Assembly: GCA_002430725.1 (NCBI GenBank) | Contig: DJCU01000040.1 | Location: 15,401 to 79,400, forward strand | Direction of reading: 5' to 3' | Source: Candidatus Gottesmanbacteria bacterium UBA5942 | GTDB taxonomy: Bacteria; Patescibacteriota; Microgenomatia; UBA10105; UBA927 | Length of the DNA: 64,000 bases | In this document: positions 11,230 through 58,719 of the stretch, one piece after another | Numbering within the stretch: position 1 is the first letter of the stretch | How the letters are laid out: each line of letters begins with the position of its first letter | Notes under the pieces: generated by a model | Seen by the model: the letters and a program-made list of their open reading frames with translations, nothing else | Database searches by the model: none | What the model was told of the DNA's origin: nothing | Position numbers and translations under genes: made by a program

Positions 11230-11949
11230 ATGAGCGGTCATTCAAAGTGGAGTAAAGTCAAACACCAAAAAGCGACAACTGACGCTGTTAAAAGTCGTGA
11301 ATTTACTCGTGCCTCCCGCGGTATTACAGTGGCGGTGCGCGAAGGCGGCGGCCTTACAGATCCTGATAAAAATTTCCGATTACGGTTAGCAATTGAACTT
11401 GCAAAGCAAGTAAATATGCCCAAAGACAATATAGAACGGGCGATAGCCAAAGGAGCAGGGTCGGGGGCTACTGCGTTTGAAAATCTTACCTATGAAGGAT
11501 ACGGGCCGGGGGGAGTCGCGTATGTAGTGGAAGCCGCGACTGACAATCATCAACGTACGGCTGCTGCGGTAAAGCATGCATTTGATCGCGCGGGTGGATC
11601 ATTAGCAACTCCGGGAGCAGTGAGTTTTCAGTTTCAGAAAAACGGGGTACTTTTGATTGCAAAATCAGACATGCTTTTTGATGCGATGCTTGATCGCGCC
11701 ATAGGCGCTGGAGCAGATGATGTTATCGAACGTGATGACGTGTATGAAGTGTACACAAAGTATACTGAGCTTTTTGCGGTAAGGCAGGTGTTTGAATCTT
11801 CATCACTGGTCATCGAACATGCATCGCTTATTATGCGGCCGTTAAATTCTGTGAGTCCTCAAGCGGATGTGCGCCTCAAAAATGAAGCACTTATATTGGC
11901 ATTAGAATCGCTTGACGATGTACAAAACGTATATACTACTATGGAATAG
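11230..11949 (+). CDS. yebC: YebC/PmpR family DNA-binding transcriptional regulator
   Basis: MSGHSKWSKVKHQKATTDAVKSREFTRASRGITVAVREGGG is the canonical YebC N-terminus. Confidence 0.9.
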   Translation: MSGHSKWSKVKHQKATTDAVKSREFTRASRGITVAVREGGGLTDPDKNFRLRLAIELAKQVNMPKDNIERAIAKGAGSGATAFENLTYEGYGPGGVAYVVEAATDNHQRTAAAVKHAFDRAGGSLATPGAVSFQFQKNGVLLIAKSDMLFDAMLDRAIGAGADDVIERDDVYEVYTKYTELFAVRQVFESSSLVIEHASLIMRPLNSVSPQADVRLKNEALILALESLDDVQNVYTTME

Positions 11950-12004: not shown

Positions 12005-12844
12005 ATGATAAAACAAATAATCGATCGTATTGCGAAGCGTTTTAAGCGTTGGGACAGGACTCAACCATTTTCGAAACGCCAGCAGTTTGTCATTATTACT
12101 GGGCTTCTCACCGCGGTGCTTATGACGACACAACTGGTGTCATTGGATTTTCGATATCCGATGGTGGGAGTGCTTGCTGTGTTAAGTTATTTACTTTGTG
12201 CGTTTGCATTGCGTGAAGATTTAAAAGGACACGAGTGGGCGACACTGTTGATCTTGCCATCGTTTTTTACAGCAGCAGTTGCAGTGTTTTATTTTCTTTT
12301 GCCAACACGTTGGCTTACTCGGTTGCCGATCGCAGCGCTTTACGCAGTCGGTATGTATGCATTGTTACTCACTGAAAATATTTACAATGTAGCTGTTGCG
12401 CGAACCATAGCGCTGCTTCGTGCGGCGCACTCAGTAGGATTTTTGCTTACACTCGCGACATACTTTTTGCTGCTGCAGACAATCCTCGCATACCGTTTTC
12501 CTGGCATCATCAATGCGATACTCGTAGGGCTCGTGACGTATCCATTAACACTGCAGATTTTATGGGCGACAAATTTGGAGTCATATATAGGGAAGTCAGT
12601 GAAGGATCTGACACTTGTTATTACTGTCGTATGTGTTGAGTTAGCCTGGATATTTGCACTTTGGCCTGTCAGGACAACGCTTTTGGCGCTTTTTTTAACA
12701 ACAGTCTTTTACGGACTGGTTGGCATGGGTCAACAGTATCTCTCAGATCGACTATATAAGCGAACGGTATGGGAATTTTTTGGAGTTGTCGCGATTGTAT
12801 TTGTTATTTTGCTTTTAACAGTGAATTGGCGCGCGGCTATTTAG
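12005..12844 (+). CDS. Polytopic membrane protein, function unknown
   Basis: About 8 predicted TM helices, no recognisable motifs. Confidence 0.5.
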   Translation: MIKQIIDRIAKRFKRWDRTQPFSKRQQFVIITGLLTAVLMTTQLVSLDFRYPMVGVLAVLSYLLCAFALREDLKGHEWATLLILPSFFTAAVAVFYFLLPTRWLTRLPIAALYAVGMYALLLTENIYNVAVARTIALLRAAHSVGFLLTLATYFLLLQTILAYRFPGIINAILVGLVTYPLTLQILWATNLESYIGKSVKDLTLVITVVCVELAWIFALWPVRTTLLALFLTTVFYGLVGMGQQYLSDRLYKRTVWEFFGVVAIVFVILLLTVNWRAAI

Positions 12845-14112
12845 GCATAGAACGTGGGGAGTGGGAGAGTGATATAGTTTGATATAGTTGATATAGTTTG
12901 ATATACGTCTATAAAACTATAGGACACTATGTGGATAAATATTTTCACGGCCTCAGACAACTGTTTTCACAACCCTCCATTTGAAGCTAAACTAGCTTCA
13001 GGTTGTCTATAAAACTATAGGGTAGAGCACTCCTATCACTCTTCACTCGTACGCTCGCCTCATTCCACCCGCTCCCTTGAGTACACAAAGTGTGCGATAA
13101 AATAGCAGTTTGGATTGTTATGACGGGCTAAATAGCGTTATGTCACTCGGAGCAGAGTGTCGAAACGTAGCCTCAAAAACGCTACTTTAGCGCATTAGAA
13201 CAGTCTAAATAAAACCGAAAAGATATACACGTTTGGCAGACGTGCCTATGCAATGCTAATCATGCGTAATGGTGCGCAGCATCGTGTAGCATTGAGGCTG
13301 ATAATATAGTTTTGGACCGTATTATCGCTCTATTCTGACACCTGAATGTTATTCTGTTGTATTAGAAATTAGCCTCGAAAATGACAATATAGCGCGTATT
13401 AATGAGCTAAATTAGCCCCTACGAAATACACAGTGTCAACGTAGCCTCATAAATCTTTATATAGAGCGTAAAAACGCGCTAAATTGCGACATCTCCAGTG
13501 TATACGTTATCTCCGGAGTAGGGTTCTGTAGCCTCGAAAATGACAATATAGAGCGTATTAATGCGCTAAACGGTATGCTATATAAAAAACCCGAACGACC
13601 TTATTTGACTGTCATATTGTTGTCGATATTGAACACAAAAACAGTACGCACAAAGTAGCCACGAGAGAGTGCAGTATTTTGCATGAGCTTGAGCGACTGA
13701 TGCATATACTCCTCTTTGCAACAATCCTAGCTTTTTTGGCATGACTCCTTTTTAGGCCAAATATGCCTGGGAGCGGGAAAATGGTATAAGTCGCACAATA
13801 ATACTTTTACGACATTATGAAGCGAGGTGTGCCCGAATAGTCACTTTTTGTGCGCCTATCATTATCTGACATTTGTGCATCAATATATCGTAATTTTATG
13901 ATGTGTACTTATATGTTCCTCTCTTACTGTATTGCCACTTAACTCGTCACTGGTTTGTGTTTGTCCGCTTATCAAGAAAACCCTGCTGAGTTTTCAGAGT
14001 TTTCGCGTTCTAGTAAGCTAAATAGTTTTTAGTTCGTTTTGTGAGATGATCACTTGTATGTCTTTTAATAATCAGGGGCCTTGTAGGTCATTACAGAGGC
14101 TTAAAATTGAGG
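12845..14112. repeat. 1.27 kb ORF-free, repeat-rich non-coding region
   Basis: No ORF of 60 aa or more in any of six frames; tandem gatatagtt(t) x4 at 12871-12906; 17-bp direct repeat gtctataaaactatagg at 12907 and 13005; 42-bp direct repeat at 13370-13411 and 13529-13570; tagcctc motif four times; inverted gaggcta. Confidence 0.7.
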
Positions 14113-14811
14113 CTAATTCTCAAGAAAACGATACGTCCCTAAAACGCGTGTTTTTGACGGATGTGCACCCGCATTTGTCTCTACCAACGCCACTGTATCA
14201 ATGACTCCGCTGCCAATGTCCGTATCTTTTAATGTTTGTAGTTTTTTCAGAAATTCTGGAGTCGGTGTATGGGTATATCGACAGATGGTTGTATTGGCAA
14301 ATACCATGGTGTCCGAGAAGTATTTTTTGTCGTCTGGGATACCATGTCGCACAAATTCATGGCGTATGCGATGGATAAATCGATTGTACCGAGGTGTAAT
14401 AAGGACGATGACCGAGACACTTGTTGGCAGCGCTAACACGCCATGCCATACAAACGGAAATGGCCGTTCTGACGGGATAAGTTTGGTAAGCAGACCGCGC
14501 GATGTTTCAATATCTTTTTGGCTATATGTGGGCGGATTATGGATGATTCGGATGCTATGAAATGTCACATGCAGTGATTGTTTTTGATAATAATATTGTG
14601 TTGGATCAAGGCGTTGTAATGGTTCGATTAGCTTGTTCTGAATGGACGCAGCAATTGCTTCCGGTACAAATGCGTTGAGGCTCAGACATAGCTGATTGTC
14701 TGAGGCAAAGTCAGTCTGCATAGGTACGATTGTTGAGACGCGAGAGTCCGCTGCGAGCATGGTTTCCATCTGGCGCATCAGGGCAAGCTGCTTCTTCTGA
14801 AACGGGGTCAT
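14113..14811 (-). CDS. Hypothetical protein, weak resemblance to 2H phosphoesterase (LigT-like) with degenerate second motif
   Basis: One H-x-T-x motif (SLHVTFHS) about 88 aa before an N-T-T-I at the expected second HxTx position. Confidence 0.35.
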   Translation of the reverse strand: MTPFQKKQLALMRQMETMLAADSRVSTIVPMQTDFASDNQLCLSLNAFVPEAIAASIQNKLIEPLQRLDPTQYYYQKQSLHVTFHSIRIIHNPPTYSQKDIETSRGLLTKLIPSERPFPFVWHGVLALPTSVSVIVLITPRYNRFIHRIRHEFVRHGIPDDKKYFSDTMVFANTTICRYTHTPTPEFLKKLQTLKDTDIGSGVIDTVALVETNAGAHPSKTRVLGTYRFLEN

Positions 14812-14860
14812 AGAGATATTCTAACATATTGACAACTGGCGTCATGTCGTACAATCATGG

Positions 14861-15844
14861 TTGTATAGACGTCTCAATGAACATATGGATTTAGAACAAC
14901 TTATCAAAGATTTTTTAGAATATCTGGAAATTGAGCGAAATGTTTCGCAATTGACGATACGGAATTATCGGCACTATTTGTCGCGATTTGTGCACTTTTT
15001 GACGAGCCCGGCCGACCCTGCCTCCCCTCCCCCATCCGTGAAAACTGCCCCCGTGAAAATTACGGATATTACCGCAGAAAGTATTCGGCATTATCGGTTG
15101 TATCTCGCGCGGTTTGCCGATGAAAAAGGTATGAGCCTCAAGCGAGTTACCCAAAACTATCACCTGATCGCACTCCGGAGTTTCTTAAAATACGCAGCAA
15201 AGCGAGACATCCCTACTATTTCGCCCGACAAAATTGATTTGCCCAAGGCGGAAAGCAGGTCTATCAAGTTTTTGGAGCATACCGATGTGGAGCGACTCTT
15301 AAACATGCCCGACATGAACACAAAGGAAGGAACGAGAGATAAAGCGATACTCGAGGTGTTATTTTCTACCGGTCTTCGGGTATCGGAACTTGTCAGTCTC
15401 AATCGTGATCAGATAAACCTTGATAGACGTGAGTTTAGTGTGGTTGGTAAAGGAAGAAGAACGCGTATTGTGTTTTTGTCCGAGCGGGCTGCAGATTGGC
15501 TGCGAAGGTATCTTGCCACTCGCGAAGACGATATGCGACCAGTATTTATCCGATATAGTGGCAGAACTCCTGATGAGCACGATACGACAGGCGCATCAAT
15601 CAGGTTGACCGCGCGCTCGGTGCAGCGGGGCGTTGAAAAGTATGTCAAAAAAGCAAAGTTGATGGTAAAGATTACGCCGCACGGGTTGCGGCACAGTTTT
15701 GCGACAGACCTGTTGGGAAATGGGGCGGATTTACGGGCTATCCAAGAGTTATTGGGGCACAAAAATGTCTCTACGACTCAAATTTATACCCATGTCACGA
15801 ACCCACAGCTGAAGCAAATACACGATAAGTTTCATAGCAAATAA
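14861..15844 (+). CDS. Tyrosine site-specific recombinase, XerC/XerD family
   Basis: Catalytic box HGLRHSFATDLL...LGHKNVSTTQIYTHV; N-terminal core-binding domain with an atypical Pro-rich insert SPADPASPPPSVKTAPV. Confidence 0.9.
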   Translation: MYRRLNEHMDLEQLIKDFLEYLEIERNVSQLTIRNYRHYLSRFVHFLTSPADPASPPPSVKTAPVKITDITAESIRHYRLYLARFADEKGMSLKRVTQNYHLIALRSFLKYAAKRDIPTISPDKIDLPKAESRSIKFLEHTDVERLLNMPDMNTKEGTRDKAILEVLFSTGLRVSELVSLNRDQINLDRREFSVVGKGRRTRIVFLSERAADWLRRYLATREDDMRPVFIRYSGRTPDEHDTTGASIRLTARSVQRGVEKYVKKAKLMVKITPHGLRHSFATDLLGNGADLRAIQELLGHKNVSTTQIYTHVTNPQLKQIHDKFHSK

Positions 15845-43482: not shown

Positions 43483-43485
43483 AGC

Positions 43486-43737
43486 TCACGCCTCAACTGG
43501 TGGCGCGTCCTCGGCGATTTCAACATCTATATAGATGTTTCGTTTTGCCGCAATGACTTTCATGAGGTCACGAAGCGCACGAATAATGCGTCCGCTCTTT
43601 CCGATAACTTTACCGGTGTCTTCAGGGTGGGTATGGATAGTGAGAATAATTGCTTCACCATCCTGTCGTTCGTCAATAACGATGTTTTCCGGGTGATCGA
43701 CAAGTGTTCGGACGAAATAGTCTAATGTGTCTTTCAT
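43486..43737 (-). CDS. khpA: KH-domain RNA-binding protein KhpA (UPF0109)
   Basis: VIGKSGRIIRALRDL GXXG KH motif. Confidence 0.85.
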   Translation of the reverse strand: MKDTLDYFVRTLVDHPENIVIDERQDGEAIILTIHTHPEDTGKVIGKSGRIIRALRDLMKVIAAKRNIYIDVEIAEDAPPVEA

Positions 43738-43967
43738 GGGGTTTTCGCGAGAAGCTTTTCGACTCCAGGGCTTACAACTGCACCCTGGCTTTTCCAGTAG
43801 GCGACCCGATCAAGGTTTACTGAAACCTGCGTGGGCTTTACTAGTGGATTATAAAATCCGAGCATTTCAACAGGCGTCCCGTTGCGTCTTTTTCCCTCTT
43901 CTATCGCAACAATGCGGTACGTCCGTCTATTTTTGGCTCCGTATTGGGCTAAACGAATCTTTACCAT
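43734..43967 (-). CDS. rpsP: 30S ribosomal protein S16
   Basis: MVKIRLAQYGAKNRRTYRIVAIE...LGFYNP. Confidence 0.95.
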   Translation of the reverse strand: MVKIRLAQYGAKNRRTYRIVAIEEGKRRNGTPVEMLGFYNPLVKPTQVSVNLDRVAYWKSQGAVVSPGVEKLLAKTP

Positions 43968-43982
43968 AGAAGTAATATTCTA

Positions 43983-45043: not shown

Positions 45044-45119
45044 GAACTCTGAAACTATCAGCTTTCAGCAATCAGCTCTCACTGCTATTGCGTGACAACT
45101 GGCACCTGACAGCCGATTG

Positions 45120-45323
45120 TTATGCTGTTTTCTTTACTTTCTTTTCTTTTTTCACTGCAACTGCTCGTCCATTATAAAATCCGCAGTATTTACATACTCG
45201 ATGTGGTATTCGTGGTTTACCACAATTTGGGCAGATCAAAAGTCCTGGCAATTTCATACGGATACTTGCGTCCCGTTTGCCCTGGCGGCGTTTTGATGCT
45301 CTTCGTTTTGGTAGCGGTGTCAT
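45120..45323 (-). CDS. rpmF: 50S ribosomal protein L32
   Basis: PKRRASKRRQGKR...CPNCGKPRIPHRVCKYCGFY zinc ribbon. Confidence 0.85.
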   Translation of the reverse strand: MTPLPKRRASKRRQGKRDASIRMKLPGLLICPNCGKPRIPHRVCKYCGFYNGRAVAVKKEKKVKKTA

Positions 45324-45376
45324 AAGATAAAAATAAACTAAATGAAATCCCTCGTAACGAGCGATAACAATCGCTA

Positions 45377-50824: not shown

Positions 50825-50909
50825 GTGCTGAGGGGAGGATTCGAACCTCCGCAGACCTGAAGATCAGCTGTTTTACAGACAGCCGCAGTTGTCCCCTTTG
50901 CTACCTCAG
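50825..50909 (-). tRNA. tRNA-Tyr (anticodon GTA), class II, no encoded CCA
   Basis: Minus-strand sequence GCTGAGG...: anticodon stem GCTGT/ACAGC, loop CTGTAAA giving GTA; long variable arm; T-loop GGTTCGAATCC; discriminator A. Confidence 0.85.
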
Positions 50910-50939
50910 CAATATGTATGTATCAATATGTTGTCGCCA

Positions 50940-51285
50940 CAAAAAACCCCGCCTCCGTCCCCGATAAAAAATCGGGAACAAGGGCGGGGGTTTATCCCAC
51001 GCGGTACCACCTTGCTTCGCTAAAGTAAGTTTTTTCCACAAAAAAACCGACGAGAGGTCGGTTCTACCTTAGCCTCATTTGTGAACTCCGCTTATGGCGA
51101 CATTCACATTCTGCTTTTACGGGCTTACCCGGATTGGTTTACTCCTTGTTCAACCTTTCAGCTCAAGTGAGTATTTCGCAGATAATCTATCGGGAGATCT
51201 TGCACCAACCGTCTCCTCTCTCTTGTCTCAGATTGCCTACTACTTCATCACTTTCAATGCTTTTCCTATTCAATTGTTGATTGAA
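50940..51285 (-). promoter_or_regulatory. Putative T-box riboswitch leader (tRNA-sensing antitermination)
   Basis: Minus strand: promoter TTGACA-17-TACAGT; T-box core AAGGUGGUACCGCG (forward 51000-51013) giving antiterminator AAGG/CCUU + bulge UGGUACC + GCG/CGC; overlapping intrinsic terminator CCCCCGCC...GGCGGGG + U7 (forward 50942-50998). Confidence 0.6.
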
Positions 51286-57029: not shown

Positions 57030-57040
57030 ACGAATATGTT

Positions 57041-57070
57041 TATTGTACGTTTTGGTTTATGATGTCGCAA
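57041..57070 (-). promoter_or_regulatory. Candidate sigma70-type promoter for pheST (TTGCGA-17-TACAAT)
   Basis: Minus-strand hexamers with 17-nt spacer, -10 about 12 nt before the pheS ATG (near-leaderless). Confidence 0.3.
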
Positions 57071-57130
57071 GAAGAGAGGCGGGCGGCGTAGCTACTCGAG
57101 CGCATCGTCCGCCCCTCTTCTTATTTCGTT

Positions 57131-57334
57131 TTATCTGCGCTGCCTTTGCAATGTTCTCTCCGGATCTTGTCTTGCTCGTCGATGATGTGTGCTCCATATT
57201 TCAACTTTTCGTTCGTTTATCATTTGTTGTAACGCTGGTCTGAGCGTAATATCAGTTGATCGGTGAATTCTCCTTCCGATCGTAAGTAATTCAAGTCTTG
57301 TTTTTGCTTTACTTAGTTTTTCTTTAATATTCAT
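57131..57334 (-). CDS. Small basic hypothetical protein (67 aa) between rplT and pheS
   Basis: Excellent SD aaaggaggtg 7 nt upstream of ATG; followed by the GC-rich hairpin at 57076-57117. Confidence 0.35.
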   Translation of the reverse strand: MNIKEKLSKAKTRLELLTIGRRIHRSTDITLRPALQQMINERKVEIWSTHHRRARQDPERTLQRQRR

Positions 57335-57417
57335 GTGTTTTCACCTCCTTTCTGCAATATATATCCGCTTAGGCGGGTATTATTGCGCTAGGAAGTGCCT
57401 TAACTCATTTCAGAGCA

Positions 57418-57450
57418 CAAAAAATCCCGCTTTCGCGGGATCCTTGGGTT
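57418..57450 (-). terminator. Intrinsic terminator after rplT
   Basis: Minus strand: atcccgcg-aaa-gcgggat stem followed by TTTTTTGTG. Confidence 0.5.
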
Positions 57451-57539
57451 ATTTTTCTTTTTTCTTACGCGCCCAAAGAACCCCGCTGTAGCGAGGTAAA
57501 GAACGCAAAGAATAATGTGTTAATCATAGTAGAGAAAAA

Positions 57540-58100: not shown

Positions 58101-58161
58101 ATGAGTTAACTATTCATTATTAACAATTAACTATCAACTATCAATAATTAATTATTAACAA

Positions 58162-58719
58162 TTAATTCGTTCCTTCTCCCTCTTCTTTTCCTTCGCCTTT
58201 TTTGTTCGGTACTACCATAGCGGCAAGTACTCGTCCTTCCATCCTCGGTTCGCGAACAATTTTTACCCCTTCTAATGCGTGTACGAAGCGATTTAATACC
58301 TCGTACCCAAATTGCTTTCTTCCAAGTTCTCGACCCTTAAAAAGTACATTTATTTTAACCTGATTTCCCTTTTCAATAAACTCAGTCGCCCGTTTGAGCC
58401 AGGTGTCAAAGTCATGTTGCTCGATAAATGGACGCAATCTAACTTCTTTGACCCCCACATTTTTTACATTCTTTTTCGATTCGCGCTCTTTTCTCGCCTC
58501 CTGGTACTTAAACTTTTTGTAATCAATTAGTTTAGCGACAGGCGGTTTCGCATTTGGCGCAATCTCTACTACATCGACCCCAAATTCTTTGGCTTTTTGT
58601 AAAGCCTCGAGTTTGGAGACTATGCCGATCTGTACCCCTTTTTCATCCAACAGCCTGATTTCCGGGCTGAGGATTTGGTAGTTGATCTTGTAAAACTTAT
58701 GGGTTGGCTTTGGTCTCAA
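58162..58719 (-). CDS. infC: Translation initiation factor IF-3
   Basis: EIRLLDEKGVQIGIVS N-domain, C-domain KVLFKGRELGRKQFG; the start may be a non-ATG codon inside the thrS 3' overlap. Confidence 0.9.
   Translation of the reverse strand: MRPKPTHKFYKINYQILSPEIRLLDEKGVQIGIVSKLEALQKAKEFGVDVVEIAPNAKPPVAKLIDYKKFKYQEARKERESKKNVKNVGVKEVRLRPFIEQHDFDTWLKRATEFIEKGNQVKINVLFKGRELGRKQFGYEVLNRFVHALEGVKIVREPRMEGRVLAAMVVPNKKGEGKEEGEGTN

Follow-up and report, generated by a model that had tools for sequence, protein, structure and literature searches.

Bacteria of the Candidate Phyla Radiation (CPR) have tiny, gene-dense genomes, yet one of their lineages retains a non-coding stretch of 0.5-1.3 kb in a fixed syntenic position, and the question is what this DNA does. 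The example studied here lies in a 64 kb stretch of a Candidatus Gottesmanbacteria (CPR/Microgenomates) genome, referred to below as the window, and is the gap at window positions 12845-14112, by far the largest in an otherwise gene-dense sequence. A preliminary description of this DNA had called the gap free of open reading frames (ORFs), and the longest ORF over it in any frame is indeed just 54 aa (13578-13742, minus strand); its statement that spacers elsewhere are under 100 bp is mostly true, other gaps in the window reaching ~500-520 bp. For comparison we used 59 related loci from a DUF5656-protein search of one genome per species, all of which, where named, belong to Candidatus Gottesmanbacteria or other Microgenomates/Patescibacteria.

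Our preferred, though tentative, answer is that the gap is a conserved and modular cis-acting DNA locus, in which an Xer-type core site (block D) and accessory protein-binding modules are combined with a half-site operator at the downstream xer gene. This is suggested by the 11-6-11 architecture of D, its presence as a single copy per locus, its linkage to xer, the recurrence of its arm in the xer promoter, and the replacement of D in some relatives by a second Xer module. Which protein binds, and that D is recombined as opposed to serving regulation alone, we infer from the sequence comparisons.

The palindromic element D and the linked recombinase gene

The genes and sites on which the argument turns are as follows.

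11230-11949: YebC/TACO1 gene, preceding the DUF5656 gene
12005-12844, plus strand: DUF5656 membrane-protein gene (Pfam PF18900), the upstream flank of the gap
13788-13815, no strand assigned: block D, with the invariant dyad GTCGCACAATAATACTTTTACGAC at 13790-13813 (11-bp arm, 6-bp centre TAATAC, 11-bp arm)
14113-14811, minus strand: gene for a 232-aa protein without assigned family, between the locus and xer
14829-14856, plus strand: xer promoter, with TTGACA (14829-14834), 15 nt, and TACAAT (14850-14855)
14861-15844, plus strand: XerC/D/A-like tyrosine recombinase gene (Pfam PF00589 and PF02899)

Block D is the most conserved element of the region and was absent from the features listed previously. 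Its 24-mer GTCGCACAATAATACTTTTRCGAC (13790-13813) is found exactly in at least 119 metagenome contigs and 49 genome loci, a conservation on par with that of rRNA segments. The form across sequences is GTCGCACAATAATACTTTT(G/A)CGAC; with two flanking nucleotides on each side D reads ATAAGTCGCACAA-TAATAC-TTTTACGACAT in this genome and ATGTCGCA(C)AA - TAATAC - TT(T)TGCGAC(G/A)T over the sequences as a set. Among 148 distinct D sequences position 20 alone varies (G 61%, A 39%), and the arm pairs of the core geometry ATGTCGCAMAA / TAATAC / TTTTGCGACRT are invariant except for pair 5/20. Contigs that carry D together with flanking genes always show the context YebC-DUF5656-D-Xer, and this is so even where the DUF5656 protein is just 30-45% identical, and the Xer protein ~55% identical, to those of the window; D is therefore conserved well beyond Gottesmanbacteria. 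In practically every locus of sufficient length for both, it precedes xer on the same strand, at a distance of 0.25-3 kb over more than 150 loci. D is intergenic and unique within the window, and no second copy was found in ~170 loci at up to six mismatches. Archaeal dif sites were searched for as 11-bp imperfect inverted repeats with a 6-bp spacer that are intergenic, present in single copy and conserved between genomes (Cortez et al., PMC2958812), and D has each of these properties, differing in that it lies away from the replication terminus.

Partial copies of D are also present. An exact copy of the left arm, GTCGCACAA (in the context CATGTCGCACAAAT), is located at 14346-14354 on the plus strand, inside the gene for the 232-aa protein and ~540 nt past D, and GTCGCAMAA occurs six times in the window against 1.7 expected, with one of 100 shuffles reaching six. 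An inverted partial copy, GTCGCAAAAGTA, follows D by ~10 nt (~+34 from the start of D) in loci L015, L021, L023, L025 and L037, and is able to base-pair with the 3' half of D, as an alternative hairpin or as an extra half-site; similar inverted copies are found further downstream in L136, L159, L173 and L179.

The recombinase of the window passes the NCBIfam cut-off for XerA_Arch (223.7, cut-off 220), with scores of 252 for XerC and 246 for XerD that are both below the respective cut-offs. The gap had been described as lying next to this gene, and is in fact separated from it by the minus-strand 232-aa gene. Within the xer promoter, ATGTCGTACAAT (14845-14856) differs from the left arm of D by one change, and overlaps the -10 hexamer. 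The corresponding 12-mer, A[TC]GTCG[CT]ACAAT, occurs with up to two mismatches in the 160 nt before xer at 82 of 124 loci, lying over the -10 in Gottesmanbacteria and directly upstream of a TTGACA-17-TAAACT promoter in several distant loci. Because this half-site keeps its sequence while shifting relative to the promoter, it behaves as a protein-binding site and not as a promoter element. Some genomes have extra D-like half-sites beside D or in the xer leader. In L003, L004, L041, L057 and others there is a string of half-sites in both orientations, for example GTCGCACATCATGGATTGTAGCGACGT ... TTCGTACAATCCGTCGCTATTGTTGCGACGTC ... ACGCAAAATAGC, within the ~100 nt upstream of xer; such strings might provide several binding sites or form alternative hairpins.

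Three relatives (L019, L028 and L029; segments L019:7690-8792, L028:7440-9062 and L029:7440-9054) have a second Xer-like gene, 338-339 aa long, in the place of D and the T-rich spacer after D. This gene is followed in L028 and L029 by an ORF of 176-178 aa, of which the L028 copy has no family match. The second gene has a canonical promoter of the form TTGACA-16/17-TAnAAT and then a perfect 11-6-11 palindrome, ATCGAGTATAA-TATCCC-TTATACTCGAT, abutting the ATG, and looks like a self-contained recombinase-plus-site module.

We propose that the neighbouring single XerA-like recombinase, or a dedicated regulator, would bind the arm motif A[TC]GTCG[CT]ACAAT, as a dimer at D and at a single half-site in the xer promoter, and that occupancy of the half-site could couple expression of xer to site occupancy in a form of feedback. 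Blocks A, U and E, described below, may be accessory protein-binding sites from which, along with the T-rich spacer, a nucleoprotein structure would be assembled about the D core, as at cer and psi.

The arrangement resembles those of XerS/difSL in the streptococci and lactococci and XerH/difH in Helicobacter and Campylobacter, where the gene for a single Xer-family recombinase and a linked, highly conserved and imperfectly palindromic site in the adjacent non-coding DNA form one module (PMC5357621), much as D is linked to the downstream xer gene. difSL and difH differ from D in sequence and in spacer length, the difSL centre being 11 bp, whereas here a copy of the arm is found in the xer promoter, and a further 0.5-1.3 kb of conserved blocks surrounds the site. 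The XerS/difSL and XerH/difH modules are located at the replication terminus and are FtsK-dependent. Archaeal XerA acts without FtsK, and the Sulfolobus dif is outside the fork-fusion zones, so that a non-terminal site is conceivable. The likeness to archaeal XerA/dif extends from the XerA assignment to the arm and spacer lengths, copy number, intergenic location and conservation of D, and the dif sites of the Thermococcales are likewise highly conserved across genera, with conserved flanking or inverted-repeat sequences (PMC2958812). Unlike D, archaeal dif is not beside xerA, and lies in the termination region (PMC2958812). Plasmid cer is a 280-bp non-coding region (PMC5357621), and cer and psi consist of a recombinase core with long non-coding DNA beside it that binds accessory proteins, a layout that D and its surroundings would share; here, in contrast, the accessory-like blocks are on both sides, extend over up to 1.2 kb and are chromosomal, and no ArgR, PepA or ArcA boxes were identified at the locus.

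We found no account of this locus in the literature searched on Gottesmanbacteria intergenic DNA, DUF5656 or dif in Patescibacteria, and nothing relevant in that on CPR structured RNAs and non-coding RNAs (ncRNAs). What appears to be new is a candidate linked single-Xer/site module in CPR bacteria that lies off the terminus and has a promoter half-site and an elaborate conserved non-coding surround. If D is an Xer target, it would be the first candidate for a site of dimer resolution or recombination in the Microgenomates, and an xer-plus-site module with promoter feedback away from the terminus would bear on the control of FtsK-independent Xer systems. Should the locus instead be RNA, it would define a new CPR ncRNA class of wide distribution; in both cases the 24-mer is of use as a marker of the group.

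Conserved blocks and drifting spacers

The gene order YebC-DUF5656-gap-(optional minus-strand gene)-Xer is maintained among the related loci, in which the gap is ~0.7-1.3 kb long and has no consistent ORF. Searches with blastn and nhmmer resolve the gap into blocks A, A2, B, U (one to six copies), C, D and E, which are collinear and on one strand in ~57 of the 59 loci, and orientation and order of all blocks are the same in more than 150 loci. Relative to the closest species the blocks are 0.72-0.94 identical, the spacers 0.52-0.68, and the third codon positions of the DUF5656 gene 0.56; with blocks above the third-position identity and spacers at about that level, selection evidently acts on the blocks only. 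The spacers drift at about the neutral rate while still keeping their approximate length. We considered whether the region might be an invertible segment, and this is ruled out, all blocks having the same orientation in all loci. The blocks are arranged in the window as listed here.

12866-12976, plus strand: block A, found with nhmmer in 55 loci, always on the plus strand and just after DUF5656; contains tandem copies of TGATATAGTT (12870-12905), CTATAGG (12917-12923), TTTTCACG (12942-12949) and TTTTCACA (12964-12971)
12930-12938: DnaA-box-like perfect 9-mer TGTGGATAA of block A, which is TTATCCACA on the minus strand
13003-13030, plus strand: block A2, a second AAACTATAGG copy and then GTAGAG; corresponds to the right-hand 17-nt direct repeat
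13070-13140, plus strand: block B, CTTGAGTACAnnnnnTGTGCG ... TTTGGATTGTT..ACG(C)TCTAAAT, in 45 loci
13167-13225, plus strand: U module 1, TAGCCTC, an A-rich segment and the imperfect palindrome TTTAGCGC..GTCTAAA, then AAAACCGAA
13291-13337, plus strand: U-like unit, with a flipped heptamer GAGGCTG before the palindrome TTTGGACCG..CGCTCTA
13368-13413, plus strand: U module 2, missing from several close relatives
13441-13500, plus strand: U module 3, then ATTGCGACATCT, which resembles the right arm of D
13527-13573, plus strand: U module 4
13578-13600, plus strand: block C, CATAAAAAACCCGAAnG
13817-14039, plus strand: unconserved spacer, T-rich on this strand (T 39%, A 22%), no period-3 signal
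14040-14116, plus strand: block E, ending ..GGCCTTGTAGGTCATTACAGAGGCTTAAAATTGAGGCTAA, the last heptamer overlapping the stop codon of the minus-strand gene

Block A holds direct TGATA repeats, the DnaA-box-like 9-mer and two TTTTCAC repeats, an architecture that is preserved in distant metagenome loci, with TGTGGATAA upstream of D in 69 of 91. The tandem repeat reported previously is TGATATAGTT in 3.7 copies, and the reported 17-nt direct repeat is GTCTATAAAACTATAGG, at 12907 and 13005 with an offset of 98 nt. Between these copies two perfect hairpins had been described, of which one is a perfect 8-bp hairpin and the other a hairpin of 5 bp that does not qualify; the segment as a whole (12907-13021) folds at -24.9 kcal/mol, with a z of -2.6 relative to shuffles. 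Block A2 is restricted to closer relatives (10 loci), and the 3' half of block B resembles a degenerate U palindrome. In L057 (6832-6950), a series of AATTATCCAAT/TTGGATAATT repeats, some in each orientation, follows the DUF5656 gene directly and takes the place of the normal beginning of block A.

The U module consists of the heptamer TTAGCCTC and an imperfect palindrome TTTAGnGC-N8-GCnCTAAA, and the consensus of 127 copies is TTAGCCTCAAAAA-N7-TTTAG(A/C)GC(G/A)T-4 nt-A(T/C)GC(G/T)CTAAAT. The pattern TTTAGNGC-N8-GCNCTAAA matches only the four U-module sites in the window (0.25 expected), and spacing between U modules across loci peaks at 84-90 bp. Two 42-nt repeats noted earlier (13370 and 13529; 95% identical, and 159 nt apart as stated) turn out to be part of a four-copy family at 13168, 13370, 13442 and 13529. 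The four plus-strand copies of TAGCCTC are likewise present as described, and the region contains five of the nine copies in the window, for which the chance expectation is 4.3 over the whole window. Of the two inverse heptamers reported, the one at 13294 is GAGGCTG, with one mismatch, and the other is an exact GAGGCTA (14109-14115) that overlaps the stop codon of the minus-strand gene. Relatives carry (G/A)AGGCTAA at the position of the U-like unit at 13291-13337, and across copies the heptamer occurs in either orientation while the palindrome stays.

The preliminary description had also assigned promoter-like hexamers to the 42-nt repeats and considered a small-RNA array with repeated promoters. 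The two hexamers, TGACAA and TATTAAT, are separated by just 10 nt, relatives do not conserve TGACAA, and a sigma-70 promoter scan gives no excess (four sites against 5.9 expected), which together rule out a sigma-70 reading of the repeats and remove the grounds for such an array. Blocks A and D, examined by eye, have no consistent -35/-10 spacing and were also rejected as sigma-70 promoters. The repeats do not form a CRISPR array, the family copies being 67-95% identical and spaced by 202, 72 and 87 nt, and no Cas protein is among nine neighbouring proteins scanned against Pfam. An integron was rejected as well, the integron-integrase models, whose cut-offs are 265 and 435, giving scores of 111 and 76 bits, and the spaces between U modules (~40-160 nt) hold no cassettes.

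The T-rich spacer at 13817-14039 is 0.52 identical to that of L003, at about the neutral rate. In the window and 36 loci this spacer seems to have a TT periodicity of ~9 nt, with autocorrelation peaks at 9-10, 17-18, 26-27 and 36-37, and Fourier power for T at period 9 is ~2x background. Block E is found in 44 loci, including loci without the gene for the 232-aa protein.

DNA site, RNA or remnant

Several observations weigh against a recombination site with accessory modules. None of blocks A, U and E matches a known operator, and the accessory architecture is proposed by analogy. D is a modest match to E. coli dif, agreeing at 13 of 28 positions; in favour of the core-site reading, the inner 7 nt of its left arm, CGCACAA, correspond at 6 of 7 positions to CGCATAA of the XerC arm of that site. 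E. coli dif was the only dif with which D was compared. Archaeal dif for its part shares 14-18 of 28 positions with the bacterial consensus (PMC2958812). D is furthermore not at a switch between leading and lagging strands, as judged from skew. Cumulative GC skew rises through the region. GC3 skew, expressed on the plus strand, is positive to the left and to the right of it whichever way the genes point, with a constant sign from 13 kb to the left of D to at least ~30 kb to its right, beyond which it is weaker with no clear sign change; in 47 related loci the left flank is positive in all 47 (mean +0.115) and the right flank in 41 (mean +0.044). Because a canonical FtsK-guided dif would sit at such a switch, D is not one, and a terminus-located dif is ruled out by the skew evidence. 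The recombination-site option of the preliminary description is the one that we favour, through D and the half-site in the xer promoter, and its dif form is retained without the terminal position.

The remaining points against this reading are ones that would fit transcription of the region into RNA, and an undescribed plus-strand ncRNA or ncRNAs, either independently transcribed or as the 3' untranslated region of the YebC-DUF5656 operon, is the main, if somewhat unlikely, alternative. The blocks would then be protein-binding or base-pairing motifs and the variable spacers linkers; UUAGCCUC-plus-hairpin modules, for example, could act as a CsrB/CrcZ-like sponge, with the D hairpin serving for recognition. 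The strict single orientation and order of blocks in more than 150 loci would be expected of a transcript, as would the strand-specific composition of the spacer after D, which is T-rich (T 39-40%) and G-poor on the plus strand, with T exceeding A in 94% of loci and 97% of distant ones, in the absence of sequence conservation. A canonical terminator-like hairpin is present at block E in L017 and L037, where the last heptamer is inverted to give GGGGCT-loop-AGCCTC and a T-run; L019 has the same arrangement and, like L048, apparently such a hairpin. The flanks of D are more complementary than when shuffled (-10.3 against -8.9 kcal/mol, p=1.5e-4), and the folding z of segment 12907-13021 given above points the same way. 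Paired cells and covariation score at D also exceed those of shuffles, yet controls with a slid register score equally. One subgroup has a pyrimidine box at ~-70 that is able to pair with GGGAGAAG at ~+35, with a few changes that, read by eye, look compensatory; such a long-range helix is suggestive only.

Against RNA stands the behaviour of the elements themselves. Searches of the whole window against Rfam 15 at the gathering threshold (including ROOL, GOLLD, HEARO/omega, OLE, RNase P, tmRNA, 6S and SRP) gave no relevant match, positions 12700-14300 at E<=10 gave nothing except a 14.5-bit chance match to P1, and 16 distant loci at gathering score gave nothing at D; the region has neither a tRNA nor a tmRNA according to ARAGORN. 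Sliding-window RNAalifold of 17 relatives on both strands returns weak local hairpins at most. For D with its flanks, in 148 sequences, RNAalifold gives zero consensus pairs, and a global alignment of D +/-100 nt yields the D stem alone. The stems of the U palindromes show no covariation among 127 copies: the first variable pair (A-G 49, C-G 27, A-T 21, C-T 19) varies independently and the second (G-T 41, A-C 30, A-T 18, G-C 17) avoids Watson-Crick combinations, and TAGCCTC-GAGGCTA heptamer pairing has no consistent compensation. Pair 5/20 of D is C-A in 39% of sequences, breaking the plus-strand hairpin, and the first flanking pair is T..G in 35%, breaking the minus-strand one, so that neither strand is consistently paired. 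The large structured ncRNA suggested previously therefore finds no support in Rfam, in RNAalifold or in covariation of the repeat hairpins. The locus is similar to CsrB/RsmZ, CrcZ, OLE, GOLLD, ROOL and HEARO in being long and non-coding, with a variable count of short modules and unconserved linkers, and unlike these RNAs it has no Rfam match, no covariation in its module hairpins and no CsrA-type GGA motifs. A lone arm of D in a promoter is also the behaviour of a DNA site, and on balance the conserved elements behave as sequence-specific double-stranded DNA sites. A combination of the two, in which the locus is an undescribed ncRNA gene widespread in CPR/Microgenomates and working with the linked XerA-like recombinase, we regard as quite improbable. 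It would have a ~150-nt core around the D hairpin, expanded by modules to ~1.2 kb in Gottesmanbacteria, and might serve as an RNA cofactor, guide or DNA-site decoy, with the promoter half-site as the DNA counterpart of the RNA motif.

If the elements are DNA sites they need not be recombined, and the locus might be a regulatory hub or promoter cluster of ordinary transcription-factor operators for xer and its neighbours. The half-site that overlaps the xer -10 or abuts the -35, the palindromic nature of D and U, like that of dimeric repressor sites, and the perfect DnaA box conserved in block A are all compatible with this, DnaA also acting as a transcription factor. We consider it unlikely, however, since 0.7-1.3 kb of operators without a plus-strand gene to control is hard to explain, the convergent gene of the Gottesmanbacteria separates the locus from xer, and the best-conserved element, D, is at a distance of ~1 kb from the promoter of xer; recombinase sites are indicated by the 11-6-11 geometry, by the link with a recombinase gene and by the second Xer that takes the place of D in some relatives and has an 11-6-11 site of its own. 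The same DnaA box, together with direct repeats, a T-rich stretch and a large gene-free, AT-richer and repeat-rich setting, recalls a chromosomal replication origin or other DnaA-dependent replication element, which is nevertheless exceedingly improbable: there is only one perfect box, the window has no excess of box-like matches (11 against 16 expected) and no dnaA signature, the skew described above does not switch here or in the 47 related loci, and the upstream genes point into the region. A bacterial oriC was rejected on the single box, the skew and these gene orientations.

The lack of an ORF, the many repeats, the nearby recombinase and the second recombinase inserted in three relatives could also be signs of a pseudogene or a decayed mobile element, as had been suggested, and this too is very improbable. 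In tblastx comparisons with relatives there is no frame-specific conservation, similarity appearing in all six frames and at nucleotide-conserved blocks only, and the region has no period-3 signal; a hidden gene or pseudogene is ruled out on these grounds. An intact gene spanning the interval is absent from all relatives, bar the three insertions, which are unlike the window sequence. The blocks are syntenic in nearly all of the relatives, as noted above, and are under purifying selection across a whole class and beyond. Neither D nor the L028-type palindrome was found in viral contigs, and a phage or mobile-element att site was rejected, there being no D in the viral contigs and no second D-like copy in any locus to mark an integrated element.

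Neighbouring genes and other features of the window

The 232-aa protein encoded between the locus and xer has no match in Pfam, NCBIfam or PDB, and is conserved at this position in ~20 related genomes (42-82% identity); other genomes have in its place a ~305-aa AP_endonuc_2/xylose-isomerase-like TIM-barrel gene, or nothing. A Ddl gene is located downstream, after xer. Elsewhere in the window there are unexplained gaps of 330-510 bp at 43483-43982, 45044-45376 and 57030-57539, and an AT-rich tandem repeat at 58106-58165, consisting of 2.6 copies of the 21-mer TTAACTATTAACTATCAACAA or alternatively of 6.7 copies of the heptamer ATTAACA, sits in a 270-bp gap before a gene ending at 58162. Finally, at 50825-51266 on the minus strand, a T-box leader (93.8 bits) lies directly upstream of a tRNA-Tyr gene and no aminoacyl-tRNA synthetase ORF intervenes, which is an unusual arrangement.

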